Assembly (NCBI GenBank): GCA_026770705.1
Contig: JANJGN010000008.1
Location: forward strand, 129,146,001 to 129,210,000
Source of the DNA: Isurus oxyrinchus
Lineage: Eukaryota
Length of the DNA: 64,000 nucleotides
Reading direction: 5' to 3'
Shown: positions 1,801-44,262 of the stretch, piece by piece
Position numbering within the stretch: the stretch's first letter is position 1
Layout: every line of letters starts with the position of its first letter
Notes under the pieces: model-generated
Told to the model about the DNA's origin: nothing
The model's input: the letters and a program-made list of their open reading frames with translations, nothing else
The model's database searches: none
Position numbers and translations under genes: made by a program

Positions 1801-2567
1801 CAGTTTTACTCCCTTCCTGTGTAATGGGCTGCCTGATCTCTGTTCAGAAACAATCACAATTAAGAAAGGTTATTTGTAGTATTTAGCTTATTTTTCCCAC
1901 TAGGCTGAGCAGTCTAGATGTTGACTCTTTGTGCAAAGACGTACTACTTCATAAATAATCTTGAATTTGTCATTTATCATATTCTCATCTTGCCCTGCAG
2001 TTATGGTTTAACTTATAACTGTGTCCAGAAAAATCAGATTATTTTGTTCAATTTAGTATTTTCCTCTGTAAAGTCTCCGTTCAAAATCATACAATGTTTA
2101 TCTAGGTTGCACAATCCAACTTTTCCAACATTATTCTGACTTAAAAATGTGGAAATATCAGGACTGGATATGGAATGCTCTTGGCATCCTTGGGTTCCAA
2201 GTTGCTGTGCCACAATTTTCCCTGTCTATGACACACTGTAACAGCTCTAACTCACAGCACCTCAGGAAATTGTTTACTGCTCCCTTTCTCTTGATTTCTG
2301 ACAGCTTGTTACAAGTGGAACAATTAAACCCTCTCACCAGGAATTTCCTCAAAGCTTCTCCTGCTCCCCAGACATAACTTTGACGGAACTTCATCAGAAG
2401 ACCTACTTGCCCGTGCTGCTAAAATCTTGATTGATGTTATGGTGCCCAAGTTAGGGAATTCCAGACATGTGTCTCTCTGAATGGAATGGAATTAATTAAG
2501 GCTACAACAAAAACAAAAATACCTGGAAAAACTCAGCAGGTCTGGCATCATCTGTGGAGAGGAGCAC

Positions 2568-2606
2568 AGTTAAAGTTTCGAGTCCGAATGACCCTTCAAC
2601 AGAACT
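2568..2606 (-). ncRNA. Minimal hammerhead ribozyme motif (degenerate)
   Basis: Minus strand agtt-CTGTTGA-a-gggtc-attcg-gactc-GAAA-cttt-aact; helices I and II pair, helix III palindrome mutated. Confidence 0.6.
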
Positions 2607-2636
2607 AAGTAAAAATAAAAGAGAACATTTTTACTT

Positions 2637-2675
2637 AGTTCTGTTGAAAGGTCATTTGGACTTGAAACGTTAACT
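2637..2675 (+). ncRNA. Minimal hammerhead ribozyme motif
   Basis: agtt-CTGTTGA-a-aggtc-atttg-gactt-GAAA-cgtt-aact; AACGTT palindrome at helix III. Confidence 0.65.
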
Positions 2676-3576
2676 GTGTTCGTCTCCACAGATGCTGCCA
2701 GACCTGCTGAGTTTTTCCAGGTATTTTTGTTTTTGTTTTGGACTTCTGACATCCACAGTTTTTTGCTTTTAATTAAGGCTACAGTTGCTCTATACAACAC
2801 TTAGCTCTGATGACAATGAAGTAAATGGGTTAATGCCTGTATAGTCCTGCTGTTATGCCCTCGCTGATGAAGATTCAACATTAGACCAGATGCTAAAAAA
2901 CGGAATTCCCATATAATCCCTGTTGGCAGGAAACAGTGATAATCGAAGGACACAACAAGTTGAGCCATGATTGTGGCAATTTAGAAAGAGGCATCAGCAG
3001 TGTCCCGTCACAAGACCACAGCCCTGCTCTCCAAAACAAGGAATGCCAGCTTGCACAAGATGATTAAAGAAAGTTGAAAAACACCTAAACTGTGTTGAAT
3101 GTAGTGTTGAAAATATTGAATGGAACCTAGACCAGGGATCAAACCCTCCATAAAAATACCATACGAGAGAAATTTGAAACCAGGATTATAAATATCTGTC
3201 GAAAATGTCACCTCTACTCTTACAATTCAATTAACAATGAATCACATTTCACTATTCACTGCAACACATAATGAAGAGTCATTTCAAATAGAAAGCAACA
3301 GACAGATGAAAATTAAACAGAAAATGGTAGAGGATAAATTGGTAGAAAACAGGCCTGTTCTTGAATTGGTTGTTTAGGTCTCTCACGCTCGTCTGTGAAT
3401 GAAGAAATACAGATCTTTCCCAGGACTTCCAGTAGCAAAGGAGAGAACAAATAAAGCAGTCCAGATGTTGTATTGTGGAATATTCTCTAAGGGACCCAAA
3501 ACTAGAAGTCAATTGCAGGATTCTTAATGCAAGCAGATTAATAGGAAGAAAGCCAGATCATTAACAAGACAGAGAG

Positions 3577-8730: not shown

Positions 8731-10584
8731 ATGCAACCCCCATGAGTTGAGCTGAGCCCTGTTCAGGTCCTCCTTCACCCACAAACATATGAGCCAACCT
8801 TGGCTAATGCTTGTGCTGGCTGTTTGGCTGGTCCTCCCAGTCTCTGAGCCCTGGTATGGTGAGAGTGATTGAGACAGGGGGCCTGCAATTCTGGGGGTTG
8901 AATGGCTACACTCTGCTTGTTGGGTGGTGGTGGGGAGAGGCACAAGGTGGTAAGGATTAGGATTAGGATAATCTAGTTGCATTGTAGGGGAGCCCCCTAC
9001 TTAGCATTTTTTCAGGGAATTAGAGAAGCTTATGCACAATTTGAACAGTGCGCAGCGTCCTTTGTGCTGGCCAGCTGCACTGAAGTGAGCAAATCGCCTT
9101 GGCTTCCATTGAAGGCCTCAAGCCTCCATACCTAACAATACACAAGGCATTTGCCATCAAATTATTAGCCCATCGTGACCAGAAGGACTTTAACCCAGCC
9201 CAAAACCTTAAACTTAGACCAGGTACAGGCAACTCTCTACTTTCCTGAAAGCAAGTAAGAAATGCAGATGATTGGAAGAAAAAAATGCTGCACTGAAAGA
9301 GTGTGTGTATATTTATCAGGCAGTTCATTAAATGGAGCTGACTGTGATAATTTTTTGGTGATATATTATTTAATAATTTCAGTCAATGAATAAGTAATTA
9401 TGCTTTAGAAGACACAAATTAAAGAGCGTAGATCAGAGCCTTGGGAATGTGGCTGCATAGTTCATTGAAGGAGATAAATTGGGAATTGCAAGATTGTTTC
9501 CTTAGGGAGGCTGCACTATTTCTTAGATATTACAATTGCTGAAAGCGCCATCAGTTTTGCACAAGTGTACGCCATTTGTTTTAGGAAACCAAAGTTGATT
9601 TAGTGCTTTGATGCCTAATGTAATGTTTCAAAGCTTGCAACTTCTACTTAAAGCATTTGCTGAACAGCAAAGTGAGTGATTGGTGAAAAGCAAGCTTCAG
9701 AGGAACAGGGTTAAATGTTACGTCACCAGAGAATGCCAATGGGGTTGGACTTGGCCTGTGTGGTATTAGCATCAAATCAGGTGATGCATTTGTGTATGAT
9801 GAATGGTGACTCCTTTGTTAAAATAAAGCAGCCATATTATCATGTGAATGAATAATCACCCACAGTGTACGCTAAATAATTGTCTTTGTAAACAGTTCAA
9901 ATAAATTGCCCAAGGCCTTTAACCTTGCACCCATCACCAGCTCCCACCCTCGCCCCCATCACCCACAGGTAACTTCTGCCTTCTTCAGCTATGGGTGGCA
10001 ACTCACACTGAGGCTTAGTTCTACGGATGCCAGCACCTCTCCTGTGCCATGTTCAAATGTGAATACCGGAGGGCAGTTTGACTAAAAGCGCCTCACGGAT
10101 GAGCTCAGTGTTAACCATCCAAAGTCATCATGCTTGCCCATCTTCCAGGAATGCTTGTCAACAGTCAGCAGTGAGGCCAACTATAATGATCAAATTTCTG
10201 TTCTTGCTGAAATAAGTTACTGATTCAAAACCTTAAATCAAAGTGATAGTGTTGTATTTATGTAGCTTGAAGAGGGAAGCTCAGCCTGTAAGGGACAACT
10301 GACTCTGAGGGATAACTCTGTGGTAATTGTGTTTTTGTGATTTTGTAGTGGGGGAGTCGAGCTGCCTGCGTGGGCCTGAACACTGGACGTTGCTGTTGCC
10401 ATGGTGGTGATCAGTCGGGTCAGGTGCAGCCTCGCTGTAGCAGTGGGGGGGGGGGGCGTGGGGTGAGTGGACTTTCCTGCACCCCGGGTCCTCTAGGGAT
10501 TGGAGAGCTATTTCACAGTGCTCACAGGAGGCAGAGCCAGTGCCATGGGTGTGAAGCGAATGGGGTGGAGGTGAACTTTCAACA

Positions 10585-11289
10585 TAAAGGCAAAAAACTG
10601 TGGATGGTGGAAATCCAAAATAAAAACAAAAATACCTGGAAAAACTCAGCAGGTCTGGGCAGCATGTGCGAGAGGAACACAGTTAACATTTCGAGTCCGA
10701 CTGACCCATCGACAGAACTAAGTAAAAATAGAACAAAGGTGAAATATAAGCTGGTTTAAGGGTGGGTGGGACAAGTAGAGCTGGATAGAGGGCCAGTGAT
10801 AGGTGGAGATAACCAAAAGCAGTCACAGACAAAAGAACAATGAGGTGTTGAAGCTGGTGATATTATCTAAGGAATGTGCTAATTAAGGGTAGAAAGCAGG
10901 ACAAGCAAGGTACAAATAGACCTAGTGGGGGTGGGGTGGGGTGAAGGAATCGAAAAAGGCTAAAAGGTAGAGATAAAACAATGGATGGAAATATATTTAA
11001 AAATAATGGAAATAGGTGGGAGAAGAAAAATCTGTATAAATTATTGGCAAAAAAGGGGGCTATCGGAAAGGGGGAGGGAGGGGATGGAGGAGAGAGTTCA
11101 TGATCTAAAATTGTTGAACTCAATATTCAGTCCAGAAGGCTGTAAAGTGCCTAGTGGAGGATGAGGTGCTGTTCCTCCAGTTTGTGTTGAGCTTCACTGG
11201 AACAATGCAGCTGGCCAAGGACAGACATGTGGGCATGAGAGCAGGGTGGAGTGTTGAAATGGCAAGTGACAGGGAGGTCTGGGTAATGC
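10585..11289 (-). mobile_element. Older 5'-truncated PLE (family A-related): endonuclease C-terminus, 3' UTR, hammerhead, long tail
   Basis: 11095-11289 aligns with 13080-13280 (GLNIEFNNFRS end); terminal repeat 10585-10760 includes the tail extension. Confidence 0.9.
10681..10719 (-). ncRNA. Minimal hammerhead ribozyme motif
   Basis: agtt-CTGTCGA-t-gggtc-agtcg-gactc-GAAA-tgtt-aact. Confidence 0.6.
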
Positions 11290-11770: not shown

Positions 11771-12650
11771 AATGTAAGAAAAGAAGATTGCAAAAAAAGA
11801 GATAGCAAGCACCCGAGAATTCACTTTTACTTTAGTCCTTCAATATAGTCATTGGAAGCGTTGCAGGCCTGAGAATTTTCGTTTTGGTTCTCTGAAGAAA
11901 ACCTAAGGTCGGAGGTTTCTGCTGATGAATTCACAATGGTTCACTTCAAGCAACCGCAAGTTTCTGGCTTTTCCCGTCAAAGTTGGTCAAGCCCATATAG
12001 TGAGAAGTTATAATCTTGCAGGTAAAACGAATTAGCCCTACCTCTCTCCCTGTGATGGATTTTCTGGGCAGGATCCTCTTTTTTGCTGGGTGAGATAGCT
12101 TCTCCCTGATCTTCAAGAATGACACATCTGGCCAGACTGAGAATTACACCTCTCTGAGGTATTTTTAACTATGAAAAATGGGTGGTAACAGATGAGTCTC
12201 CTGTTATGCACCTTGCCCGATCGGATCAGCTGCTGCTGCTGGTTTCAGACGATCGTCGATAGCTAAACTCATCCCCAGTGAATTTGGAATCTTGCCTGGT
12301 GTGAAATCGCAATCATAGATTACAGAGAACAAAATAGATTGGTACACTAACGTGGGGAGTGAAATTACTGATAACTCTTTCTTAAGGCTTTGGTGAACTT
12401 TTGAAGCTTTTTTTTTGCCGGAGTAATTAAATGACCAGGACGAGTTCAGTCATTGGACTATAAAATTGGATTATACAATAAATTACCAACTAATCTATCT
12501 GGTACTGTCTCCATTCAACTCATTGCAAATGTTGCAGTAACCACCCTCATTCTTTCTGTTGGTGAGAGAAGGCTGTCAGGAAGTACAAAACAAAAACAGA
12601 ATTACCTGGAAAAACTCAGCAGGTCTGGCAGCATCGGCGGAGAAGAAAAG

Positions 12651-12689
12651 AGTTGACGTTTCGAGTCTTCATGACCCTTCGACAGAACT
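12651..12689 (-). ncRNA. Minimal type I hammerhead ribozyme motif (PLE family A)
   Basis: agtt-CTGTCGA-a-gggtc-atgaa-gactc-GAAA-cGTC-aact; predicted cleavage between 12655 and 12654. Confidence 0.75.
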
Positions 12690-13085
12690 TGATTTCGAGT
12701 CCAGGAAAGAGTTGAAATATAAGTTGGTTTAAGGTGTGTGGGGGGGGGGGGGGGGGGGGCGCGGAGAGAGAGAGAGAGACAGAGGTGCTTGTGTAGACAA
12801 ACAAGCAGTGATAGAAGCAGATCATCAAAAGATGTCAGTGACAATGGGACAAAAGAACACATAGGTGTTAAAGTTAAAGTTGGTGATATTATCTAAACGA
12901 ATGTGCTAATTAAGAATGGATGGTAGGGCACTCAAGGTACAGCTCTAGTGGGGGTGGGGGGAGCATAAAAGATTTTAAAATATTTAAAAATAAGTGGGAA
13001 AAGAAAAATCTGTAAAATTTATAGGGAAAAAAAGGGGGGAAAAAAAGGGGGGAAACAGAAAGGGGGTGGGGATGGGGGAGGGAGC

Positions 13086-15835
13086 TCACGACCTAAAGTT
13101 ATTGAATTCAATATTCAGACCGGAAGGCTGTAAGGTGCCTAGTCGGAAGATGAGGTGTTGTTCCTCCAGTTTGCGTTGGGCTTCACTGGAACAATGCAGT
13201 AAGCCAAGGACAGACATGTGGGCAAGAGAGCAGGGTGGAGTGTTAAAATGGCAAGCGACAGGGAGGTTTGGGTCATTCTTGCGGACAGACCGCAGGTGTT
13301 CTGCAAAGCGGTCGCCCAGTTTACGTTTGGTCTCTCCAATGTAGAGGAGACCACATTGGGAGCAACGAATGCAGTAGACTAAGTTGGGGGAAATGCAAGT
13401 GAAATGCTGCTTCACTTGAAAGGAGTGTTTGGGCCCTTGGACGGTGAGGAGAGAGGAAGTGAAGGGGCAGGTGTTACATCTTTTGCGTGGGCATGGGGTG
13501 GTGCCATAGGAGGGGGTTGAGGAGTAGGGGGTGATGGAGGAGTGGACCAGGGTGTCCCGGAGGGAGCGATCCCTATGGAATGCCGATAAGGGGGGTGAAG
13601 GGAAGATGTGTTTGGTGGTGGCATCATGCTGGAGTTGGCGGAAATGGCGGAGGATGATCCTTTGAATGCGGAGGCTGGTGGGGTGATAAGTGAGGACAAG
13701 GGGGACCCTATCATGTTTCTGGGAGGGAGGAGAAGGCGTGAGGGCGGATGCGCGGGAGATGGGCCGGACACGGTTGAGGGCCCTGTCAACGACCGTGGGT
13801 GGAAAACCTCGGTTTAAGGAAGAAGGAGGACATGTCAGAGGAACCGTTTTTGAAGGTAGCATCATCGGAACAGATGCGACGAAGGCGAAGGAACTGGGAG
13901 AATGGGATGGAGTCCTTACAGGAAGCGGGGTGTGAGGAGCTGTAGTCGAGGTAGCTGTGGGAGTCGGTGGGTTTGTAATGGATATTAGTGGACAGTCTAT
14001 CACCAGAGATTGAGACAGAGAGGTCAAGGAAGGGAAGGGAAGTGTCAGAGATGGACCACGTGAAAATGATGGAGGGGTGGAGATTGGAAGCAAAATTAAT
14101 AAATTTTTCCAAGTCCCGACGAGAGCATGAAGCGGCACCGAAGTAATCATCGATGTACCGGAGAAAAAGTTGTGGAAGGGGGCCGGGGTAGGACTGCAAC
14201 AAGGAATGTTCCACATATCCCATAAAGAGACAGGCATAGCTGGGGCCCATGCGGGTACCCATAGCCACACCTTTTATTTGGAGAAAGTGAGAGGAGTTGA
14301 AGGAGAAATGCCAGACGGAGGAGAGTAGTGGTGGATGGGGATTGTTCGGGCCTCTGTTCGAGGAAGAAGCTAAGGGCCCTCAGACCATCCTGGTGGGGGA
14401 TGGAGGTGTAGAGGGATTGGACGTCCATGGTGAAGAGGAAGCGGTTGGAGCCAGGGGAACTGGAAATTGTTGATGTGACGTAAGGTGTCAGAGGAATCAC
14501 GGATGTAGGTGGGAAGGGGACTGGACAAGGGGAGAGAGAAGGAAGTCAAGATAACGAGAAATGAGTTCTGTGGGGCAGGAGCAAGCTGAGACGATCGGTC
14601 TACTGGGGCAGTTCTGTTTGTGGATTTTAGGTAGGAGATAGAAGCGGGCCGTCCGAGGTTGGGCGACTATCAGGTTGGAAGCTGTGGGAGGGAGATCCCC
14701 AGAGGAGATGAGGTCCGTGACAGTCCTGGAAACAATGGCTTGATGTTCAGTGGTGGGGTCATGGTCCAGGGAGAGGTAGGAGGAAGTGTCTGCGAGTTGA
14801 CGCTCAGCCTCCGCGAGGTAGAGGTCAGTGCGCCAGACAACAACAGCACCACCCTTGTCAGCGGGTTTGATGACAATGTCAGGGTTGGACCTGAGAGAAT
14901 GGAGTGCAGTAAGTTCAGAGAGAGACAGGTTAGAATGGGTGAGAGGAGCAGAGAAATTGAGACGACTAATGTCGCGCCGACAGTTCTCAATGAAAAGATC
15001 AAGAGAAGGTAAGAATCCAGAGGGAGGGGGTCCAGGTGGAGGGAGAATATTGGAGATGGGTTAAAAGGATCCGTTGAACTGGGAGAGGACTCCTGCCCAA
15101 AGAAGTGAGCCCGGAGACGAAGACGGCGAAAGAAGAGTTCAGTATCATGCCGAGCCCGAAATTCATTGAGGTGAGGGCGTAAGGGTATGAAACTAAGTCC
15201 TTTGCTGAGCACTGAACGTTCAGCATCGGAGAGGGGAAGGTCAGGGGGGTATAGTGAATACACGGCTGGGGCTGGGATTGGAAGATGGGGTGGGGACGGA
15301 GGGACAGGCTGGGGGTGGAGGGTCCTAGATGGGTGTTGGTGTCGATGAGTTGTTGGAGCTTGCGTTCCTTAGCAGTTGAGAGAAAGAGAAAAAGTTTCTT
15401 GTTGAGGCGTCGGATGAGCCGAAGGATAAAATGAAACTGGGGGCACGCGCAGCTTTGAAAAAGGGTACGGCGGTGCTGCTGGAGGGAGAGGTCGAGTGTG
15501 TGTTCATACGGCGGCGCATGGCACTGAGTGTGGTTTTCAGAATGTGACGGGGAACAGCAGTCTGAGAAACGTTTTATATGTCCCGGAGATACCGGTAATC
15601 CTGGGTGTGGGTTCGAAAGATGAGGGGGTGGAATTTCAGTTGAAATCCACGTGGGGTAAGTCGGAGACGGAGACAGTCACTGAGAAAGGAGATATGGCTG
15701 TGAAAGCGGGTTTTAGTAAACACCTTGTCAAACACTAGGAGGGAAATGGAAAGCAAAGAAGGTGAACAAGGGCAACAGAGAGATACGGAAATCTTGTCGC
15801 AGAGAGGAACAGAACTTCTTCAAGGAGGTAGGCAT
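13086..15835 (-). pseudogene. PLE RT/GIY-YIG ORF, copy 1 (frameshifted as assembled)
   Basis: Starts ATG CCT ACC TCC TTG AAG AAG at 15835; YIDD, GTRMGPSYA and YIGET motifs are spread over several frames; many +1/+2 indels in homopolymer/dinucleotide runs and a 23-nt deletion near 14309. Confidence 0.9.
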
Positions 15836-15837
15836 TT

Positions 15838-15925
15838 CTTGAAGAGCAGTGGCAGTCAATTAAACACAGAGATAAAAACAAAGAGAACTGCGGATGCTGG
15901 AAATGCAAAACAAAAACAGAATTAC
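15838..15925 (-). other. Predicted 88-nt GT-AG intron in the PLE 5' UTR
   Basis: Donor CAG|GTAATT at 15925, branch-like TTGAC about 18 nt from the 3' end, acceptor CTCTTCAAG| at 15838, then AA-ATG of the ORF. Confidence 0.7.
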
Positions 15926-15970
15926 CTGGAAAAACTCAGCAGGTCTGGCAGCATCGGCGGAGAAGAAAAG

Positions 15971-16009
15971 AGTTGACGTTTCGAGTCTTCATGACCCTTC
16001 GACAGAACT
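15971..16009 (-). ncRNA. Minimal type I hammerhead ribozyme motif (PLE family A)
   Basis: Identical to 12651-12689. Confidence 0.75.
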
Positions 16010-16403
16010 TGATTTCGAGTCCAGGAAAGAGTTGAAATATAAGTTGGTTTAAGGTGTGTGGGGGGGGGGGGGCGCGGGAGAGAGAGAGAGAGACAGAGGT
16101 GCTTGTGTAGACAAACAAGCAGTGATAGAAGCAGATCATCAAAAGATGTCAGTGACAATGGGGACAAAAGAACACATAGGTGTTAAAGTTAAAGTTTGGT
16201 GATATTATCTAAACGAATGTGCTAATTAAGAATGGATGGTAGGGCACTCAAGGTACAGCTCTAGTGGGGGTGGGGGGAGCATAAAAGATTTTAAAATATT
16301 TAAAAATAAGTGGGAAAAGAAAAATCTGTAAAATTTATAGGGAAAAAAAGGGGGGAAAAAAAAGGGGGGGAAACAGAAAGGGGGTGGGGATGGGGGAGGG
16401 AGC

Positions 16404-18274
16404 TCACGACCTAAAGTTATTGAATTCAATATTCAGACCGGGAAGGCTGTAAGGTGCCTAGTCGGAAGATGAGGTGTTGTTCCTCCAGTTTGCGTTGGGC
16501 TTCACTGGAACAATGCAGTAAGCCAAGGACAGACATGTGGGCAAGAGAGCAGGGTGGGAGTGTTAAAATGGCAAGCGACAGGGAGGTTTGGGTCATTCTT
16601 GCGGACAGACCGCAGGTGTTCTGCAAAGCGGTCGCCCAGTTTACGTTTGGTCTCTCCAATGTAGAGGAGACCACATTGGGAGCAACGAATGCAGTAGACT
16701 AAGTTGGGGGAAATGCAAGTGAAATGCTGCTTCACTTGAAAGGAGTGTTTGGGCCCTTGGACGGTGAGGAGAGAGGAAGTGAAGGGGCAGGTGTTACATC
16801 TTTTGCGTGGGCATGGGGTGGTGCCATAGGAGGGGGTTGAGGAGTAGGGGGTGATGGAGGAGTGGACCAGGGTGTCCCGGAGGGAGCGATCCCTACGGAA
16901 TGCCGATAAGGGGGGTGAAGGGAAGATGTGTTTGGTGGTGGCATCATGCTGGAGTTGGCGGAAATGGCGGAGGATGATCCTTTGAATGCGGAGGCTGGTG
17001 GGGTGATAAGTGAGGACAAGGGGGACCCTATCATGTTTCTGGGAGGGAGGAGAAGGCGTGAGGGCGGATGCGCGGGAGATGGGCCGGACACGGTTGAGGG
17101 CCCTGTCAACGACCGTGGGTGGAAAACCTCGGTTAAGGAAGAAGGAGGACATGTCAGAGGAACCGTTTTTGAAGGTAGCATCATCGGAACAGATGCGACG
17201 AAGGCGAAGGAACTGGGAGAATGGGATGGAGTCCTTACAGGAAGCGGGGTGTGAGGAGCTGTAGTCGAGGTAGCTGTGGGAGTCGGTGGGTTTGTAATGG
17301 ATATTAGTGGACAGTCTATCACCAGAGATTGAGACAGAGAGGTCAAGGAAGGGAAGGGAAGTGTCAGAGATGGACCACGTGAAAATGATGGAGGGGTGGA
17401 GATTGGAAGCAAAATTAATAAATTTTTCCAAGTCCCGACGAGAGCATGAAGCGGCACCGAAGTAATCATCGATGTACCGGAGAAAAAGTTGTGGAAGGGG
17501 GCCGGGGTAGGACTGCAACAAGGAATGTTCCACATATCCCATAAAGAGACAGGCATAGCTGGGGCCCATGCGGGTACCCATAGCCACACCTTTTATTTGG
17601 AGAAAGTGAGAGGAGTTGAAGGAGAAATTGTTCAACGTGAGAACAAGTTCAGCCAGACGGAGGAGAGTAGTGGTGGATGGGGATTGTTCGGGCCTCTGTT
17701 CGAGGAAGAAGCTAAGGGCCCTCAGACCATCCTGGTGGGGGATGGAGGTGTAGAGGGATTGGACGTCCATGGTGAAGAGGAAGCGGTTGGAGCCAGGGAA
17801 CTGGAAATTGTTGATGTGACGTAAGGTGTCAGAGGAATCACGGATGTAGGTGGGAAGGGACTGGACAAGGGGAGAGAGAAGGAAGTCAAGATAACGAGAA
17901 ATGAGTTCTGTGGGGCAGGAGCAAGCTGAGACGATCGGTCTACCGGGGCAGTTCTGTTTGTGGATTTTAGGTAGGAGATAGAAGTGGGCCGTCCGAGGTT
18001 GGGCGACTATCAGGTTGGAAGCTGTGGGAGGGAGATTCCCAGAGGAGATGAGGTCCGTGACAGTCCTGGAAACAATGGCTTGATGTTCAGTGGTGGGGTC
18101 ATGGTCCAGGGAGAGGTAGGAGGAAGTGTCTGCGAGTTGACGCTCAGCCTCCGCGAGGTAGAGGTCAGTGCGCCAGACAACAACAGCACCACCCTTGTCA
18201 GCGGGTTTGATGACAATGTCAGGGTTGGACCTGAGAGAATGGAGTGCAGTAAGTTCAGAGAGAGACAGGTTAGA
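16404..18274 (-). pseudogene. PLE ORF, copy 2 (5'-truncated; RT domain open, endonuclease C-terminus frameshifted)
   Basis: ORF 16502-18442 contains IKPADKGG, KIHK, DVQSLYTSIP, YIDD, CPRKRCNTC and VYCIRC..C...YIGET. Confidence 0.9.
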
Positions 18275-18280
18275 CCCATC

Positions 18281-19494
18281 TCCGGCCCATCTCCCGCGCA
18301 TTCCGCCCTCACGCCTTCTCCTCCCTCCCAGAAACATGATAGGGTCCCCCTTGTCCTCACTTATCACCCCACCAGCCTCCGCATTCAAAGGATCATCCTC
18401 CGCCATTTCCGCCAACTCCAGCATGATGCCACCACCAAACACATCTTCCCTTCACCCCCCTTATCGGCATTCCGTAGGGATCGCTCCCTCCGGGACACCC
18501 TGGTCCACTCCTCCATCACCCCCTACTCCTCAACCCCCTCCTATGGCACCACCCCATGCCCACGCAAAAGATGTAACACCTGCCCCTTCACTTCCTCTCT
18601 CCTCACCGTCCAAGGGCCCAAACACTCCTTTCAAGTGAAGCAGCATTTCACTTGCATTTCCCCCAACTTAGTCTACTGCATTCGTTGCTCCCAATGTGGT
18701 CTCCTCTACATTGGAGAGACCAAACGTAAACTGGGCGACCGCTTTGCAGAACACCTGCGGTCTGTCCGCAAGAATGACCCAAACCTCCCTGTCGCTTGCC
18801 ATTTTAACACTCCACCCTGCTCTCTTGCCCACATGTCTGTCCTTGGCTTACTGCATTGTTCCAGTGAAGCCCAACGCAAACTGGAGGAACAACACCTCAT
18901 CTTCCGACTAGGCACCTTACAGCCTTCCGGTCTGAATATTGAATTCAATAACTTTAGGTCGTGAGCTCCCTCCCCCATCCCCACCCCCTTTCTGTTTCCC
19001 CCCTTTTTTTCCCCCCCTTTTTTTCCCTATAAATTTTACAGATTTTTCTTTTCCCACTTATTTTTAAATATTTTAAAATCTTTTATGCTCCCCCCACCCC
19101 CACTAGAGCTGTACCTTGAGTGCCCTACCATCCATTCTTAATTAGCACATTCGTTTAGATAATATCACCAACTTTAACTTTAACACCTATGTGTTCTTTT
19201 GTCCCATTGTCACTGACATCTTTTGATGATCTGCTTCTATCACTGCTTGTTTGTCTACACAAGCACCTCTGTCTCTCTCTCTCTCTCCGCGCCCCCCCCC
19301 CCCCCCCACACACCTTAAACCAACTTATATTTCAACTCTTTCCTGGACTCGAAATCAAGTTCTGTCGAAGGGTCATGAAGACTCGAAACGTCAACTCTTT
19401 TCTTCTCCGCCGATGCTGCCAGACCTGCTGAGTTTTTCCAGGTAATTCTGTTTTTGTTTTGCATTTCCAGCATCCGCAGTTCTCTTTGTTTTTA
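18281..19494 (+). mobile_element. Inverted 3' segment of PLE (linker, complete GIY-YIG, 3' UTR, hammerhead, long tail)
   Basis: Reverse complement of 15872-17088; frame open to GLNIEFNNFRS* at 18964. Confidence 0.95.
19358..19396 (+). ncRNA. Minimal type I hammerhead ribozyme motif (PLE family A)
   Basis: agtt-CTGTCGA-a-gggtc-atgaa-gactc-GAAA-cGTC-aact; predicted cleavage after C19392. Confidence 0.75.
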
Positions 19495-20089
19495 TGTCAG
19501 GAAGTACAGACTTCACCAGAGATTCTGCACCCACCTCACCAACCAGCACTGGGTTTCGACAGAGCACAACGTGCTGCTCTGCACTCCTGATTACTTTAAT
19601 CAGCTAAGTAGTGTTTGGTCCACATTAACAGGGTGAGCAGTAAACTGTTGAAATACAAAATGTATAATTCACATGTATGGCACAAATCTTCCGGTCTCCA
19701 TACTTTCTAAATTGGAAGTTAATTTGGGATAATTATGTCAGGAGCCCGCGAAAGTCCTCACACACACACATGCACTGAATTGTCCAGGACTTTTTAACTT
19801 CCAAAGGGCATTTCTGTTGCTCGGGGCCGCCTGAAAAAGTCTGACACTGAGCTCAGTGTCAAAGACTTGGGCCAGATACACGGGATATACCTGAATACTT
19901 ACCCAGAAATAGCATCTTGGATTACACCTTGTCTAATTCAGAGATTAGCTCGCATAATTGAACAGAGCACCACAACCAACACCCCACCCCGCTATGAGCC
20001 ACCCTGACCTAACCCAACCCAACCCAAAACAAAAACAGAATTACCTGGAAAAACTCAGCAGGTCTGGCAGCATCGGCGGAGAAGAAAAG

Positions 20090-20128
20090 AGTTGACGTTT
20101 CGAGTCCTCATGACCCTTCGACAGAACT
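20090..20128 (-). ncRNA. Minimal type I hammerhead ribozyme motif (PLE family A)
   Basis: Same as the other copies; the single change (atgag vs atgaa) falls in loop II. Confidence 0.75.
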
Positions 20129-20514
20129 TGATTTCGAGTCCAAGAAAGAGTTGAAATATAAGCTGGTTTTAAGGTGTGTGTGTGGGGGGGCGGAGAGAGA
20201 GAGAGAGACAGAGGTGCTTGTGTAGACAAACACGCAGTGATAGAAGCAGATCATCAAAAGATGTCAGCGACAATGGTACAAAAGAACACATAGGTGTTAA
20301 AGTTAAAGTTGGTGATATTATCTAAATGAATGTGCTAATTAAGAATGGATGGTAGGGCACTCAAGGTACAGCTCTAGTGGGGGTGGGGGGGAGCATAAAA
20401 GATTTTAAAATATTTAAAAATAAGTGGGAAAAGAAAAATCTGTAAAATTTATAGGGAAAAAAAGGGGGGAAAAAGGGGGGAAACAGAAAGGGGGTGGGGG
20501 ATGGGGGAGGGAGC

Positions 20515-23270
20515 TCACGACCTAAAGTTATTGAATTCAATATTCAGACCGGAAGGCTGTAAGGTGCCTAGTTGGAAGATGAGGTGTTGTTCCTCCAGTT
20601 TGCGTTGGGCTTCACTGGAACAATGCAGTAAGCCAAGGACAGACATGTGGGCAAGAGAGCAGGGGTGGAGTGTTAAAATGGCAAGCGACAGGGAGGTTTG
20701 GGTCATTCTTGCGGACAGACCGCAGGTGTTCTGCAAAGCGGTCGCCCAGTTTACGTTTGGTCTCTCCAATGTAGAGGAGACCACATTGGGAGCAACGAAT
20801 GCAGTAGACTAAGTTGGGGGAAATGCAAGTGAAATGCTGCTTCACTTGAAAGGAGTGTTTGGGCCCTTGGACGGTGAGGAGAGAGGAAGTGAAGGGGCAG
20901 GTGTTACATCTTTTGCGTGGGCATGGGGTGGTGCCATAGGAGGGGGTTGAGGAGTAGGGGGTGATGGAGGAGTGGACCAGGGTGTCCCGGAGGGAGCGAT
21001 CCCTATGGAATGCCGATAAGGGGGGTGAAGGAAAGATGTGTTTGGTGGTGGCATCATGCTGGAGTTGGCGGAAATGGCGGAGGATGATCCTTTGAATGCG
21101 GAGGCTGGTGGGGTGATAAGTGAGGACAAGGGGGACCCTATCATGTTTCTGGGAGGGAGGAGAAGGCGTGAGGGCGGATGCGCGGGAGATGGGCCGGACA
21201 CGGTTGAGGGCCCTGTCAACGACCGTGGGTGGAAAACCTCGGTTAAGGAAGAAGGAGGACATGTCAGAGGAACCGTTTTTGAAGGTAGCATCATTGGAAC
21301 AGATGCGACGAAGGCGAAGGAACTGGGAGAATGGGATGGAGTCCTTACAGGAAGCGGGGTGTGAGGAGCTGTAGTCAAGGTAGCTGTGGGAGTCGGTGGG
21401 TTTGTAATGGATATTGGTGGACAGTCTATCACCAGAGATTGAGACAGAGAGGTCAAGGAAGGGAAGGGAAGTGTCAGAGATGGACCACGTGAAAATGATG
21501 GAGGGGTGGAGATTGGAAGCAAAATTAATAAATTTTTCCAAGTCCCGACGAGAGCATGAAGCAGCACCGAAGTAATCATCGATGTACCGGAGAAAAAGTT
21601 GTGGAAGGGGGCCGGGGTAGGACTGCAACAAGGAATGTTCCACATATCCCATAAAGAGACAGGCATAGCTGGGGCCCATGCGGGTACCCATAGCCACACC
21701 TTTTATTTGGAGAAAGTGAGAGGAGTTGAAGGAGAAATTATTCAGTGAAAGAACAAGTTCAGCCAGACGGACGAGAGTAGTGGTGGATGGGGATTGTTCG
21801 GGCCTCTGTTCGAGGAAGAAGTGGAGAGCCATCATATCATCCCGGTGGGGGATGGAGGTGTAGAGGGATTGGACGTCCATGGTGAAGAGGAAGCGGTTGG
21901 AGCCAGGGAACTGGAAATTGTTGATGTGACGTAAGGTGTCAGAGGAATCATGGATGTAGGTGGGAAGGGACTGGACAAGGGGAGAGAGAAGGGAGTCAAG
22001 ATAACGAGAAATGAGTTCTGTGGGGCAGGAGCAAGCTGAGACGATCGGTCTACCGGGGCAGTTCTGTTTGTGGATTTTGGGTAGGAGATAGAAGCGGGCC
22101 GTCCGAGGTTGGGCGACTATCAGGTTGGAAGCTGTGGGAGGGTGATCCCCAGAGGAGATGAGGTCAGTGACAGTCCTGGAAACAATGGCTTGATGTTCAG
22201 TGGTGGGGTCATGGTCCAGAGAGAGGTAGGAGGAAGTGTCTGCGAGTTGACGCTCAGCCTCCGCGAGGTAGAGGTCAGTGCGCCAGACAACAACAGCACC
22301 ACCCTTGTCAGTGGGTTTGATGACAATGTCAGGGTTGGACCTGAGAGAATGGAGTGCAGTAAGTTCAGAGAGAGACAGGTTAGAATGGGTGAGAGGAGCA
22401 GAGAAATTGAGACGACTAATGTCGCGCCGACAGTTCTCAATGAAAAGATCAAGAGAAGGTAAGAATCCAGAGGGAGGGGTCCAGGTGGAGGGAGAATATT
22501 GGAGATGGGTAAAAGGATCCGTTGAACTGGGAGAGGACTCCTGCCCAAAGAAGTGAGCCCGGAGACGAAGACGGCGAAAGAAGAGTTCAGTATCATGCCG
22601 AGCCCGAAATTCATTGAGGTGAGGGCGTAAGGGTATGAAACTAAGTCCTTTGCTGAGCACTGAACGTTCAGCATCGGAGAGGGGAAGGTCAGGGGGTATA
22701 GTGAATACAAGGCTGGGGCTGGGATTGGAAGATGGGGTGGGGACGGAGGGACAGGCTGGGGTGGAGGGTCCTAGATGGGTGTTGGTGTCGATGAGTTGTT
22801 GGAGCTTGCGTTCCTTAGCAGTTGAGAGAAAGAGAAAAAGTTTCTTGTTGAGGCGTCGGATGAGCCGAAGGATAAAATGAAACTGGGGGCACGCGCAGCT
22901 TTGAAAAAGGGTACGGCGGTGCTGCTGGAGGGAGAGGTCGAGTGTGTTCATACGGCGGCGCATGGCACTGAGTGTGGATTTCAGAATGTGACGGGAACAG
23001 CAGTCTGAGAAACGTTTTATGTCCCGGAGATACCGGTAATCCTGGGTGGGTTCGAAAGATGAGGGGTGGAATTTCAGTTGAAATCCACGTGGGGTAAGTC
23101 GGAGACGGAGGCAGTCACTGAGAAAGGAGATATGGCTGTGAAAGCGGGTTTTAGTAAACACCTTGTCAAACACTAGGAGGGAAATGGAAAGCAAAGAAGG
23201 TGAACAAGGCAACAGAGAGATACGGAAATCTTGTCGCAGAGAGGAACAGAACTTCTTCAAGGAGGTAGGC
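20515..23270 (-). CDS. PLE polyprotein: reverse transcriptase + Cys-rich linker + GIY-YIG endonuclease (Neptune-type); ~918 aa if ATG and one frameshift are restored
   Basis: 882-aa ORF 20612-23260 with IKPTDKGG, KIHK, GRPIVS, DVQSLYTSIP, GVAMGTRMGPSYA, YIDD, FLDL, CPRKRCNTC, VYCIRCSQCGLLYIGET and HFN; an extra G in the run near 20662-20665 shifts the last ~48 codons (ends GLNIEFNNFRS). Confidence 0.9.
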
Positions 23271-23739
23271 CAACTCTTTCTCCCACTATCAACCCGCAGA
23301 CCCGACCCGACTCTCTCCAGCCGCCACCACTACCTCGCGACCTGACCCAATTGCTCACCCATCCACTCACTCAACCACCATCTCCCAATCACTCACTCAC
23401 TCACCCACCCCCTCACTAATTCATTCACTCACTCAGTCACCCGCTCACCCACCCACTCATGCGCTAACCCACTGAAAGACTTACCTGAATACAACAGCTA
23501 ATGTTTTAAAATGGGGGTGTGTCCTCTCTTCGCCTGTCTTCTCCTGTGCTTGTCGGTCTTCCACAGGGATAGCTGCGCTGACCCATTGCTGCTGTAGTTA
23601 GGATCAGAAGTCCTGGCTGAAATAACATAAAATGTTCAGGGCACAGAAATCTTTATGGGCAGCAAGAATGCACCCAGCATCAGTGCTGATCAGAACATCT
23701 TGGCCTATAACTTATTCTCATATATAAATACATACATAT

Positions 23740-32399: not shown

Positions 32400-35300
32400 T
32401 CAGCCACAGCATACCCAAAAGTACAGCTGCATAGCAAGGTGAGAATGGCTCATGGCCATCAAGATCATTATAGTCCTCAAAGTTCATGCCAGCAGAATCT
32501 CTGGGAGACAGCAGGCAACGTTTCCAATATTTGACAGCTCACCGTGAATTACAGCATCTGGGAGGGGATAATCTTCTCTATGACTAGAGAGGTTGAGGAG
32601 GAGTAATCACATGACTTTGCAAGGGTAGCAGGATTCCCAATAGTACAGATCAATTGCACTCATGTGGCTCTGCAGGCCCCACATATACATGGAAAGATGT
32701 ACTGTGACCGTAAGGGCTACCATTCCCTGGATGTTCATTTGATGTGTGACCATGCAGAGAATCATGTCAGTGAATACGTTAATGCTAAAAGGTTAGTCAA
32801 GGAAAAAGTGGAACCTATCAGAGATGAAGATGGAAACTTGTGTATAGATGCAGAGGCTGTGGGAAGGGTTTTGAATGAATATTTTATCTCTGTGTTTACA
32901 AAGGAAAGGGAGGATGTAGATATAGTAGTTCAGGAGGAACACAGCGAGATATTGGATGGGATAGTCATAAAGAGAAAGTACTCAAAGAGTTGAAATCCGT
33001 GAAAGTTGATAAGTCACCAGGGCCAGATGGATTGTTTCCAAGGCTGCTGAAGGAAGTCAGGGAGGAGATAGCACATCTGAGGATGATTTTCCAATCTTCA
33101 CTAGATACAGAGGAGATACCAGAGGACTGGAGAAATGCAAACGAAGTTCCATTGTTTAAAAAGGGATCAAAGGAAATGCCAAACAATTATAAGCCAGTTA
33201 GTCTTAAATCGATGGTGAGCAAATTAGTAGAATCAGCCCTGAGAGATAGGATTAACAGTCATGTGGAAAGGCATGGACTAGTCAAGGATGGTCAGCATGG
33301 ATTTGTTAAAGGAAGGTCTCCCTCACAAATTTGATTGAATTCTTTGAAGAAATGACAAGAAGGGTTGATAAAGGTACTGCAGTGGATGTTGTGTACATGG
33401 AATTTAGCAAGGCATTTGACAAGGTCCCACATGGCAGATTGGTCAGGAAAGTAAAAGCCAATGGGATTCAGGTTAATGTGGCAAACTGGATAAAAGGCTG
33501 ACTTTGTAACAGGAAACAAAGGGTAATGGTTGATGGATGCCCTTGCAAAAGGTGTTCCACAGGACTCGGTGTTGGGACCCTTGCTGTTTGTGTTATATTA
33601 TATATTAACGATTTGGACGTGAACGTGGGGGGCATGATTGGGAAATTTGCAGATGACACAAAGATTGGCCGAGTAGTGGATAGTGTAGAGGATAGCCATA
33701 ATCTTCAAACAATATAGATGGGTTGGTGGAGTGGGCGCTGAAGTGGCAGATGGATTTTAACATAGAGAAGTGTGAGGTCATACATTTAGAGAGGTCAGAA
33801 GGTTACAGGGATTACACAACAAATGGGAATATACTAAGAGGGGTAGATAAAGTGAGAGATCTTGGCATACAAGTACACAGGTCCATGAAGGCAGCAGTTC
33901 AAGTAGACAAGATTGTAAAGAAGACATATGAAATGCTCTCCTTCATCGGCAGAGATATAAAATATAAAAGTAAGGATATAATGTTGGAATTGTATAAAAC
34001 ACTGGTGAGGCCACAACTGGATTATTATGTGCAGTTCTGGTCACCACATTACAGGAAGGATGTAATAGCTCTGGAGAGAGTGCAGAGGAGGTTTACAAGA
34101 ATGTTGCCAGGGTTAGAAAAGTGTAGCTATGAGGAGAGATTGGATAGGTTGGGGTTATTTTCCTTAGAACAAAGAAGGCTGAGAGGTGACTTGATTGAGC
34201 TGTACAAAATTATAAGGGAAATAGAGTAGACAGGATAAAATTGTTTCCCTTGGTAGAGAGTTCTAGATCCGGGGACATAGATTCAAGATAAGTGGCAGGA
34301 TGTGTTGAGGGGACATGAGGAAGAATTTATTTATGCAGAGGGTAATGGGTGTCTGGAATACGCTGCCCAAGTTGGTGGTAGAGGCAGAAACTCTAAACTC
34401 TTTTAAAAAGTACCTGGATCAGCACCTTAAGTGCTGTAAGCTGCAGGACAATGAGTCAGGTGCAGGAAGGTGGGATTAGAAAGGTCACCTAGGTGTCCTC
34501 GGGCTGGCATGGACAAGATGGGCTGAATGGCCTTCTTCTCTGTGCTGTAACCTTTCTATGGTTCTGTGGTTCTAATACCCATTATCCTGGCAGCAGACAC
34601 AATGTATTCAACTTTTGCTAGTTAGGCAAACCCGGAATCTTCAGGCTACCAGAGGCTGGCTCCTTGGTGATAAGGGCTTCTTGCTTTATACCCGCTCATA
34701 CTCATTCTATACCTGGCACATGACTCTCATCCACCACCTAACAATGTTTGAACAGTGTGCCTACCGTGAGCACCATGATACAATTGGGAATGCAAGAAGC
34801 ACTTCATCAGCACCCTCAAACAATGGCCACATTACCTGGACAGCTTGTGGGGGGTTCCTTCAGCTCTCACCAGAGGATGTCTCCAATTTTGTGGTGGTCT
34901 GCTGCATCCTCTACAATGTTGCTCTCAGGAAAGCCAACCAGACATTCCGATGGCACTTTGAGAGGAGTAGGATGAAGAGAAGGAGGAGGGAGAGAAGGCA
35001 CCTGAGCTGTCTTCTCTCAGATGGGCTGTCTGTGGCAGTTTGGTTCCTCTGAAATGACATACCCATATCACCAAATCTCTGCAATTTCCTACCTTTCCAC
35101 TCCTCTGATACGGACAATCACAGAGTCTTCTTTGCCAAAACCCTGAAATAAAAAAAAGCACAAGAAAATCATTCCATAACAATATTATTGAACGACACGT
35201 CCAATAATACATGCAAGATCTTTTGTCTTGGGTGTGCCATGGCTTGTCCTAGTGTTCCTATATAGTGCTACCTTAGTGGCTGCAACGTGGCTGATGGAAG

Positions 35301-41791: not shown

Positions 41792-44262
41792 GGGCGGAAT
41801 CTTATGTCCTCTCTCATGGTGTGTTTTAAAGCAGGAAGGACAATTAATCAAGCAGAGGATGGTGGGTGAGGACCCCACTACCTTCCTGCTTCCAGCCTGA
41901 TTAAGTCCATAGTGGGAAGTCCCACAGAGGGCCTTCCCACCTGCCTTAATGAATACCCACTCAAGGGCCTCATCTCCTGCTGCAAGTATTAATCCAGCAG
42001 TGGGTGGGCCCGTCCCTATGTGGGAAGCACAATAAGCAAACCTGTATGGTTGCTTGTGGTCTCCTGGGCAGGATTCCTTGTTCAAAGGCATGCAGTGACA
42101 GGCTGAGGGACCTGGCATTGAGAAGAGGGTGGCACTGAGAACCAGCTCCCTGCCCTTGCTGCTGACTGGTCCACACCTCCCCCCACCCCCCCCAGCCCCA
42201 CAATGCCTACCCAATGAAACCTCTCTCTCCATTATTTCACAGAATCACAGAACTGTTACGGTGTAGAATGAGGCCGTTTGGCCCATTGTGTCTGCACTGG
42301 CTTTCCAAACATTTTAACTTAGTACCAAATTCCTGCTTTTTCCCTGTAACCATTAATATTGTTTCTATTTATATAATCATCCAATGCCCTATTGAATGCC
42401 TCAGTTGAACCTGCCTCGACCACAGTTCCAGGCAGTGCTTTCCAAACCCTAACTACTCGCTGCGTGAAAAAGTTTTTTTCTCACTTTGCAATTGCTTCTT
42501 TTGCAAAACGCTTTAAAATTGTGCCCTTTGGTTCTCGATCCGTTTACTAGCAGAAACAGTTTCTCCCAATCTACTCTGTGCAGATTTTGAAAACTTCTTT
42601 CAAGTATCCTCTCAGCTTTCTCCTCTCCAAGGAAACAGTCCCAACCTCTCTAATCTTTGCTCATAACTGAAGTGTCTCATCCCTGGAACCATTCTCATAA
42701 ACCTATTCTGCACTGTCTCCAATGCGTTCACATCCTTCCTACAGTGTGGTGCCCAGAACTGTACACAGTACTCCAACTGAGGCCTAATCAGTGTCTCATA
42801 TAAGTTCATCTTAACCTCCCTTCTCTTGTACTCTATGCCCCTATTAATGAAGCTTAGAGTGCTGTATGCTTTAGAAACAGCTCTCTCTACCTGTTCTGCC
42901 ACCTTTAATGACTTATGTACATATACATCGAGGCCTCTTGACTCCTGCACACCCTTTAGAATGGTATCCTTTATTTTATACTGTCTTTCCATGTTCTTTG
43001 TACCAAAGTGCATCACCTCACACTTTTCCGCATTGAACTTCAACAGCCACCCATCTGCTCACTCCACCAATGTGTGTCGATGTCCTTTTGAAGTTCTACA
43101 CTGTCCTCCTCACAGTCGACAATTCTCCCAAGTTTTGTATCATCCACAAACTTTGAAATTGTCCCCTGCACACCAAGATCTAGATCATTTATATATATCA
43201 GGAAGAGCAAGGGTCCCATTACTGGGCCCTGGGGAACTCCACTACAAACATTCTTCCAGCCCAAAAAATACTTATTAACCATTACTCTCTGTTTCCTATC
43301 CCTCAGCCAATTTTGTATCCACATTGCTACTGCACCTTTTATTCCATGACTTATAACTTTTCTCACAAGTCTGTTGTGGGCACTATATCAAACACCTTTT
43401 GGAAGTCCATATAAACCACATCAATGGCCTTGCCCTCAGCAACCACCTCTGTTACCTCTTCAAAAAACTCTTAACAAATTAGTTAGACACGATTTTCCTT
43501 TAACAAATCTATGCTGACTCTTCCAAATCAATCCACATTTTTTTATGTGACTATTAATTCTACCCCGAATAATTGCTTCAAGAAGTTTCCCTACCACTGA
43601 AGTTAATCTGACTGATCTGTAATTGCACAGCAGACCTTTACAGCCTTTTTTGAACAAGAGTGTAATGTTTGCAATTCTCCAGTCTTCCGGCACCTCCCCA
43701 GAATCCAGGGAACATTGAAAGATTATTGGCAGTGTCCCTGCAATTTCCATGCTCACTTCCCTCAATATTCTTGGATGCATCTCATCCGGTCCCGATGCCT
43801 TATCAACTTTAAGTACTGACAGCTTATCCAATACCTCCTCCTTATCAATTTTAAGCCATCTAGTGACTGAGTTTCCTACTTTGCCACCATGGCCTGGATA
43901 GCATCTGCCTCCTAGGTAAAGACAGATGCAAAACATTCACTTAATGCTTCAGCCATGCCTCTTGCCTCTACGGGTCTCTCCTCCATCTTGGGCCTCCATT
44001 GGATATTGTTCGGTTGCAGCCACCAGATTCATGGTGATGCAGCTGAGCAAAAGTGCTGCCCACCTCTGATTGGCCAGCAGATCTCAGTAGGCAGGACTTC
44101 CTGCCCCTGGGGTCCTGATCTTGCAGAAGGCCTATCACTGGCCTCTCAAGTGCCTGTTTGGCTTGTGAGTCGGTGGGCCTTCCCCAAAGGAGTCATCACA
44201 GGTCCCTTGTTGGGTCTCCAGCCAGCAGACGAGGCACCCGTCGCATCCACAAAATTCTGCCC
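41792..44262. mobile_element. Harbinger-type MITE interrupted by a CR1
   Basis: TIRs gggcggaatcttatg / cacaaaattctgccc, ttt/ttt flanks. Confidence 0.7.
42238..43953 (-). mobile_element. CR1 LINE, 5'-truncated ORF2 pseudogene
   Basis: ORFs 43460-43936, 43040-43366 and 42612-43043 with KASGPD, SGVPQG, KFVDDTK and FNAEKCEVMHFG. Confidence 0.95.

Follow-up and report, generated by a model that had tools for sequence, protein, structure and literature searches.

A composite retroelement insertion was analysed in a 64,000-nt stretch of contig JANJGN010000008.1 of Isurus oxyrinchus. This whole stretch is referred to as the window, and all coordinates are relative to it. Units and copies were defined by comparing the window with itself. 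The insertion, which occupies positions 12586–19495 (6.9 kb), consists of a full unit (copy 1), a 5′-truncated unit upstream of it (copy 2) and an inverted arm, all enclosed by one exact 14-bp target duplication (Table 1). Copies 1 and 2 form a tandem of 3,320 + 2,369 nt, or 1.71 units. Judged from this layout, the three parts are the product of a single insertion event. The left side of the insertion is a short end, 67 nt beyond the cut predicted in a hammerhead-like motif, and the right side is a long end, 102 nt beyond. The 35-nt tail that separates the two ends is present at the right end only, in both two-armed insertions of the window. It stops 37 nt before the ATG, which itself lies 139 nt from the predicted cut. 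Target duplications (14 and 15 bp) were found in two of the four insertions examined.

An initial annotation of 12588–16009 had placed more than one unit in tandem here, with ends about 67 nt (short) and 102 nt (long) past the cleavage site, and both statements were borne out by the measurements. The geometry that it gave is right, but the interval covers part of the event: the inverted arm, with a third hammerhead-like motif, was missed, and the long end belongs to this arm, where it terminates the right side of the insertion. As a separate observation, a transcript across the 1.2-kb inverted repeat (18281–19495 with 15873–17088, 99% identity) would give long double-stranded RNA, a likely source of small RNA.

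Table 1. Features of the main insertion and of related copies in the window (hammerhead-like motifs and cuts are predictions).
Feature	Position	Strand	Remarks
Left target-site duplication, 14 bp	12574–12587	+	Exact 14-mer at 12574 and 19495; last 2 nt also match the element end
Copy 1, full 3,320-nt unit, finishing at the short end	12586–15905	−	Self-comparison
Motif 1, minimal type I, U at position 6	12651–12689	−	Predicted cut 12655/12654
23-nt deletion private to copy 1	14309–14310	−	On a 6-bp hairpin
35-nt tail separating the short from the long end	15873–15907	−	Within the seamless copy 2/copy 1 junction
Copy 2, 5′-truncated upstream unit, 0.71 unit	15906–18274	−	649-codon open frame; reverse transcriptase and GIY-YIG matches
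Motif 2	15971–16009	−	Predicted cut 15975/15974
Head-to-head junction	18275–18280		6-nt filler repeating the sequence just inside the inverted arm
Inverted arm, 3′-most 1.2 kb of the unit, long end	18281–19495	+	Tail at 19460–19494
Motif 3	19358–19396	+	Predicted cut 19392/19393
Right target-site duplication, 14 bp	19495–19508	+	
Copy 3, separate insertion, short end, 5′ end at the ATG	20025–23270	−	About 1–1.6% diverged; self-comparison
Hammerhead-like motif of copy 3	20090–20128	−	Relaxed descriptor
Older miniature insertion, short-end arm and inverted long-end arm	2506–2771		15-bp target duplication (2492 and 2769)
Older relative with a long end, similarity about 71%	10582–11287	−	Hammerhead-like motif at 10681–10719 with U at position 6

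Copies 2 and 3 both match the RVT_1 reverse transcriptase (RT) family above the cut-off, with E-values of 1.2e-07 and 1.9e-07, respectively. The match to GIY-YIG is weak (E = 9e-04) and, with 19.9 bits against 22.6, below the Pfam cut-off. The protein of copy 3 combines in one open reading frame (ORF) the DKG and YIDD motifs, a CX4CXXC linker and GIY-YIG. The linker corresponds to residues 803–811 of protein P0001, and the CX2-5CXXC pattern was found in 102 of 120 relatives. There were 786 relatives among the 8,000 scored, the closest with a name being a bamboo shark protein (67% identity). An ORF with RT followed by GIY-YIG, a partial tandem with pseudo-long terminal repeats (pseudo-LTRs) and an inverted truncated arm, a tail of 30–40 nt and a target duplication are all present, as in Penelope-like elements with an endonuclease (EN+), and a CX2-5CXXC linker lies between RT and endonuclease, as in Neptune. 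These sequence features place the element among the EN+ Penelope-like elements, and the linker motif alone assigns it to the Neptune type.

The family was examined in assembled contigs of four of 23 runs, from two organisms, aligned on 15500–16300 (801 bases); one of the 23 runs is recorded as RNA. No position at which many molecules start or stop emerged, but such contigs reveal neither RNA ends nor circular RNA, and the junction of a circle is identical in sequence to that of a seamless tandem. Among the loose ends listed, the short end was the best supported in both DNA runs, with 155 and 201 contigs. The predicted cut site was absent among the 24 loose ends listed, there being 1,021 others. 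One contig from a DNA run covers 15828–15939, that is the ORF start, the tail and the short end, so that this junction is the normal form of the family. Six of the 15 joints listed, four of them in both DNA runs, connect ORF positions directly to the short end (15907–15915). With 21–28 letters a side, they give a weak hint that non-seamless tandems, impossible from a circle, may also occur. The cut is traversed by two contigs of the presumed RNA run, in which strand, RNA nature, and uncut versus re-joined RNA are indistinguishable. Joints that lead back to 15808 or 15729 were disregarded, being probably chance matches of short length, and the 30-fold higher depth at 15905–15985 was not used as a copy number, related subfamilies being mixed there.

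Substitutions were counted with two base-run blocks and two ambiguous columns left out. Copies 1 and 2 differ at 4 of 2,296 positions, copy 1 and the inverted arm at 1 of 1,133, and copy 2 and the arm at none of 1,133. Compared with copy 3, the counts were 33/3,182 for copy 1, 37/2,319 for copy 2 and 10/1,133 for the arm. There are 29 sites at which copies 1 and 2 have the same letter and copy 3 another; the sharing of private variants by tandem units, for which the initial annotation had suggested looking, is thus present at this locus. The four differences between copies 1 and 2 are all C/T, three of them at CpG, and all change an amino acid, in one case a glycine conserved in 39 of 39 relatives. 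C/T changes at CpG and the altered glycine indicate decay after insertion. Site 13576 is common to copies 1 and 3, most simply through two CpG hits. All three arms have a T at 15988, which is found at about 4% of the family depth in both DNA runs. From these comparisons, the arms are alike at birth and of one template lineage. This likeness is equally compatible with a circle, with a tandem donor of recent origin, with a jump and with two RNAs of one donor, and therefore cannot separate a circle from linear RNA. Shared private variants were rejected as proof of a circle, since linear-RNA routes predict the same.

The ORF of copy 1 (ATG at 15835, stop at 13086) is disrupted by the 23-nt deletion and by 13 insertions of 1–2 nt relative to copy 3, all in base or dinucleotide runs. 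At least four of these insertions (15549, 15575, 15624 and 15770) are missing from the family contigs, which suggests long-read consensus errors rather than decay. The deletion could be a skip of the RT, a later slippage or an assembly error. It had been put forward as a possible argument against a single template; this use was rejected, as the 6-bp hairpin allows an origin during or after copying.

Motifs 1, 2 and 3 are identical across the 61 nt folded. The predicted cuts of motifs 1 and 2 are spaced 3,320 nt apart, so that the two identical hammerheads described by the initial annotation one unit apart on the minus strand are confirmed in spacing and identity. The term ribozyme used there is less secure: the core is CUGUCGA instead of CUGANGA, any cleavage is putative and an Rfam scan of the window gave no match. 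With a relaxed descriptor, six matches were obtained in the window, every one belonging to this element family, whereas 20 shuffled windows together gave two; the motifs are therefore not due to chance. A seventh motif came from alignment. GAAA, helices I and II and a UH cut triplet (UC or UU) are present, as in minimal type I hammerheads. Stems I and II are paired in 63 of 63 cells over seven copies, with one compensatory change that has no significance on its own (81 of 500 shuffles). The stability of the single-strand fold is not above that of shuffles (z = +0.69). In all seven copies of the window, U replaces the conserved A at position 6 (U6 and A6, respectively). Helix III is merely a 4-nt palindrome, ACGU in five of the seven copies and changed in the two older ones, so that cutting would need a dimer. 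A helix III of this size is the type that needs a dimer (PMC4209133). The computed energy of the double-hammerhead fold is −11.7 kcal/mol, whereas two monomers reach 2 × −7.6 and a different dimer −17.8 kcal/mol.

In the contigs, no A>T site was found at 3% of depth or more in any of the four runs, one of which was too deep for a full count; a return to A6 is thus not common. C6 or G6 variants may exist, A>G and A>C sites being taken from those listed. Changes at position 6 lower hammerhead activity (PMC3088659), and in one canonical hammerhead at 0.3 mM Mg the A6C change reduces the rate from 0.30 per min to 3.6e-6 per min (PMC7151607). By analogy, the U6 core may weaken cutting. With U6 and without a helix III, the hammerhead is presumably a weak or conditional one, and the tandem can be explained without it. 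Neither A6U activity nor a U6 Penelope hammerhead was found in the literature surveyed; the survey did not extend to Lunse et al. on small Penelope hammerheads or to the supplementary files of the papers of 2014 and 2024 discussed below, where the variant may be listed.

The insertion probably arose by two-ended target-primed copying of a linear RNA that had not been cut, combined either with read-through or with a jump from one terminal repeat to the other. In one retrotransposition event of the Neptune-type element, the GIY-YIG nuclease would have cut both strands; the 14-nt stagger of the cut is shown by the target duplication. Each 3′ end would prime reverse transcription internally on the element RNA, one at the short site (+67) and the other at the long site (+102), as the ends of the insertion indicate. 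As the sequence shows, the left cDNA ran for 5.7 kb over two cut sites and the right cDNA for 1.2 kb over one, and the arms are joined head-to-head by the 6-nt templated filler. The RNA is presumed to be linear and uncut at the hammerheads. It would be either a read-through transcript of a tandem donor or a repeat-ended transcript, with a homology-guided jump between its pseudo-LTRs; the two routes are inseparable here. The stretch that forms the inverted arm is also part of the other cDNA and must have been traversed twice, and twin priming on one monomer was rejected for this reason.

The predicted cut site is crossed by all seven copies of the window, and three times by the templates of the main insertion. 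The earlier proposal that the RT template spans this site is upheld to that extent, but its choice between read-through RNA and a re-ligated circle was too narrow, a jump between repeated ends being equally seamless. Copying around a circle, which had been offered as the direct source of the 1.7-unit tandem, is compatible with the sequence; the sequence test cannot pick it, however, as a jump or a tandem donor fits too. Data from related elements are consistent with copying of uncut RNA. In the anole element, the subject of the one biochemical test, which favours unprocessed RNA, hammerhead mutants leave insertion unchanged, unprocessed RNA is dominant and no RNA-seq reads end at the cut; in vitro, two internal start sites bracket the tail, extension takes place on both strands and ribozyme-dead RNA is usable as template (PMC11167929). 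Naiads have no canonical hammerheads, yet their insertions show partial tandems, inversions and tails like those seen here (PMC8557442).

Several points weigh against this account. Penelope, with a main transcript of 2,947 nt, regenerates tandems (PMC2377424), and a read-through daughter is never longer than its donor, so that re-copying of some kind, by a jump or by a circle, is required. No demonstration of a jump by Penelope-like enzymes was found in the literature surveyed. The near-identity of the arms would suit a circle equally. The loss of cutting with A6U is predicted from A6C, which retains 0.067–0.33 per min at 1–10 mM Mg (PMC7151607), and the anole hammerhead cuts once the element protein is added (PMC11167929). 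Beyond those listed, the contigs contain a further 1,021 loose ends as well as 23 letter changes, and RNA ends are invisible in them.

Cervera and De la Pena proposed in 2014 that tandems result from cutting, circular ligation and more-than-unit copying (PMC4209133), and a 2019 review repeats this and adds uncleaved oligomers (PMC6765202). Applied to the present element, the two hammerheads of one transcript would pair by their palindromes and excise a monomer of 3,320 nt, which would be closed by a host ligase of the RtcB type and copied 1.7 times round by the RT. Such a course of events is rather unlikely. It agrees with the identical motifs at one-unit spacing, the seamless junction of the contig at 15828–15939 and arms identical at birth; both start sites are just 3′ of the cut, so that a cut monomer would be useless unless closed, and tandems need to be regenerated somehow. 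Closure by RtcB and circles of animal retrozymes have been demonstrated (PMC7229834), as has protein-assisted cutting in the anole element (PMC11167929). However, ribozyme-dead RNA works in vitro (PMC11167929) and clades without hammerheads make the same tandems (PMC8557442). U6 is present throughout the window with no reversion in the four runs, the double-hammerhead fold is disfavoured by the energies given above, and a dimer of weak U6 hammerheads would have to cut twice, whereas a jump needs no cutting. An RT without RNase H would also need to displace its own cDNA on a circle, which counts against it. No circle from an autonomous Penelope-like element was found reported in the literature surveyed. 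The palindrome could have another function, unlikely as it may be, as a link between RNAs: having lost A6, the hammerhead would be mostly non-cutting and keep its stems and palindrome to bring two RNAs to the halves of a protein dimer, one for the short and one for the long start. This would account for insertions of which one arm finishes at the short and the other at the long end, as in both cases here, and tandems would be rebuilt by a pseudo-LTR jump; no such role for a Penelope hammerhead was found in the literature surveyed, which did not include Lunse et al.

It is quite improbable that the tandem was formed at the DNA level, whether a second copy inserted itself within the first one's terminal repeat or unequal recombination altered the number of units. 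The anole protein does cut its own pseudo-LTR region (PMC11167929), tandem insertions are mentioned by Schostak 2008 (PMC2377424), and the six ORF-to-short-end joints would point to non-seamless tandems or nested insertions, although these joints have just 21–28 letters on the short side. Yet a single duplication flanks the whole structure, and visual inspection of the seamless internal junction revealed none there. The arms share the rare letter at 15988, and the 0.29 unit absent from copy 2 could not be supplied by recombination. That the tandem or the inverted arm is an artefact of assembly is very improbable. The base-run insertions of copy 1 point to a noisy consensus, and no read spanning the locus is among the data. 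Nevertheless, the 14-bp duplication is exact, the two ends are distinct and typical of the family, the copies are separated by four substitutions and the 23-nt deletion, and the plan, which equals that of published Penelope structures, recurs at 2506–2771. Copying of uncut linear RNA from two ends is thus retained as the probable explanation.

The architecture, the two ends with the tail and the circle model are already published; a partial tandem with an inverted arm is standard for Penelope-like elements (PMC8557442, PMC3846280). The present element resembles the EN+ Neptune clade in its single ORF with RT, DKG, CX2-5CXXC linker and C-terminal GIY-YIG, and in its partial tandem, inverted truncated arm, 30–40-nt tail at one end and pseudo-LTR hammerhead (Craig et al. 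2021, PMC8557442); it differs by the U6 core. Penelope of Drosophila virilis belongs to a different clade and its tail overlaps the ORF start, unlike here, but it shares a full copy with a 5′-truncated upstream copy, a large inverted terminal repeat and an optional repeat of 34–37 bp (Schostak 2008, Fig. 1C; PMC2377424). Poseidon of Anolis carolinensis also has two internal RT starts bracketing a tail downstream of the cut, cutting and extension of both strands, and a predicted dimer (Frangieh 2024, PMC11167929). Its hammerhead and starts lie within the ORF and it cuts with protein, whereas here they are upstream of the ATG and the motif is putative. The minimal hammerheads of Penelope-like elements (Cervera and De la Pena 2014, PMC4209133) are likewise of type I, with a short helix I, an extra base before helix II and a palindromic helix III stub, are spaced by about 3 kb and prompted the circle proposal. 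In contrast to U6, the core variant in the main text of that paper, to which the comparison refers, is U3-A8. Animal non-LTR retrozymes also form tandem units with type I hammerheads, and the proven hammerhead-made circles are theirs (PMC7229834). These are non-coding, of 170–400 nt and with canonical cores, whereas the unit here is 3,320 nt long and coding, with a minimal, altered U6 core. Small retrozymes derive from Penelope-like elements (bioRxiv 10.64898/2026.07.22.740005; PMC5680766).

Other copies in the window were also considered. Copy 3 lies 530 nt from the main insertion, starts within the start codon and is set in short C/A-rich repeats (20000–20024 and 23271–23330); no target duplication was found for it. 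The miniature insertion follows the same plan as the main one. With the copy at 10582–11287 as reference, both its arms terminate on the upstream side of the predicted cut, at distances of about 45 and 49 nt, which is 10–14 nt past helix I. In this single case the arm ends may reflect a common RNA 5′ end distinct from the cut site. For the copy at 10582–11287 itself, a search for a target duplication gave only a matching 6-mer. A second-frame stop-free stretch of 286 codons over the RT region in copies 2 and 3 (16732–17592 and 20842–21702) is probably due to base composition. Another repeat is present as two old copies in opposite orientation (33002–34210 and 42584–43810), 64% alike over 1.2 kb; its frames gave no Pfam match. 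In the window as a whole, ten other long frames lacked a Pfam match. When metagenomes were scanned with P0001, 10 loci were obtained from 113 candidate stretches, none with a hammerhead-like motif or a DNA match to the unit, and a pattern scan of viral contigs gave no match. Of the element words sampled from 14350–17650, a fraction of 0.44 occurred in a coral metatranscriptome (X12) and 0.43 in a fish metagenome (X13), the simple reading being carry-over of host nucleic acid.

Taken on its sequence, the feature is real, a young element of known type, and the hypothesis attached to it is in print and undecidable from sequence. It bears on how Penelope-like elements rebuild their tandems and on what their hammerheads do, neither of which is settled by this locus. 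The U6 core is a detail of potential interest to specialists. The family offers a natural test, being a young, abundant and transcribed-looking vertebrate family with a hammerhead devoid of a conserved core base. A 3.3-kb circle, if found, would have no precedent among autonomous elements of this class in the literature surveyed. Conversely, if the hammerhead is unable to cut and seamless tandems are nonetheless made, the circle model would fail for the clade.

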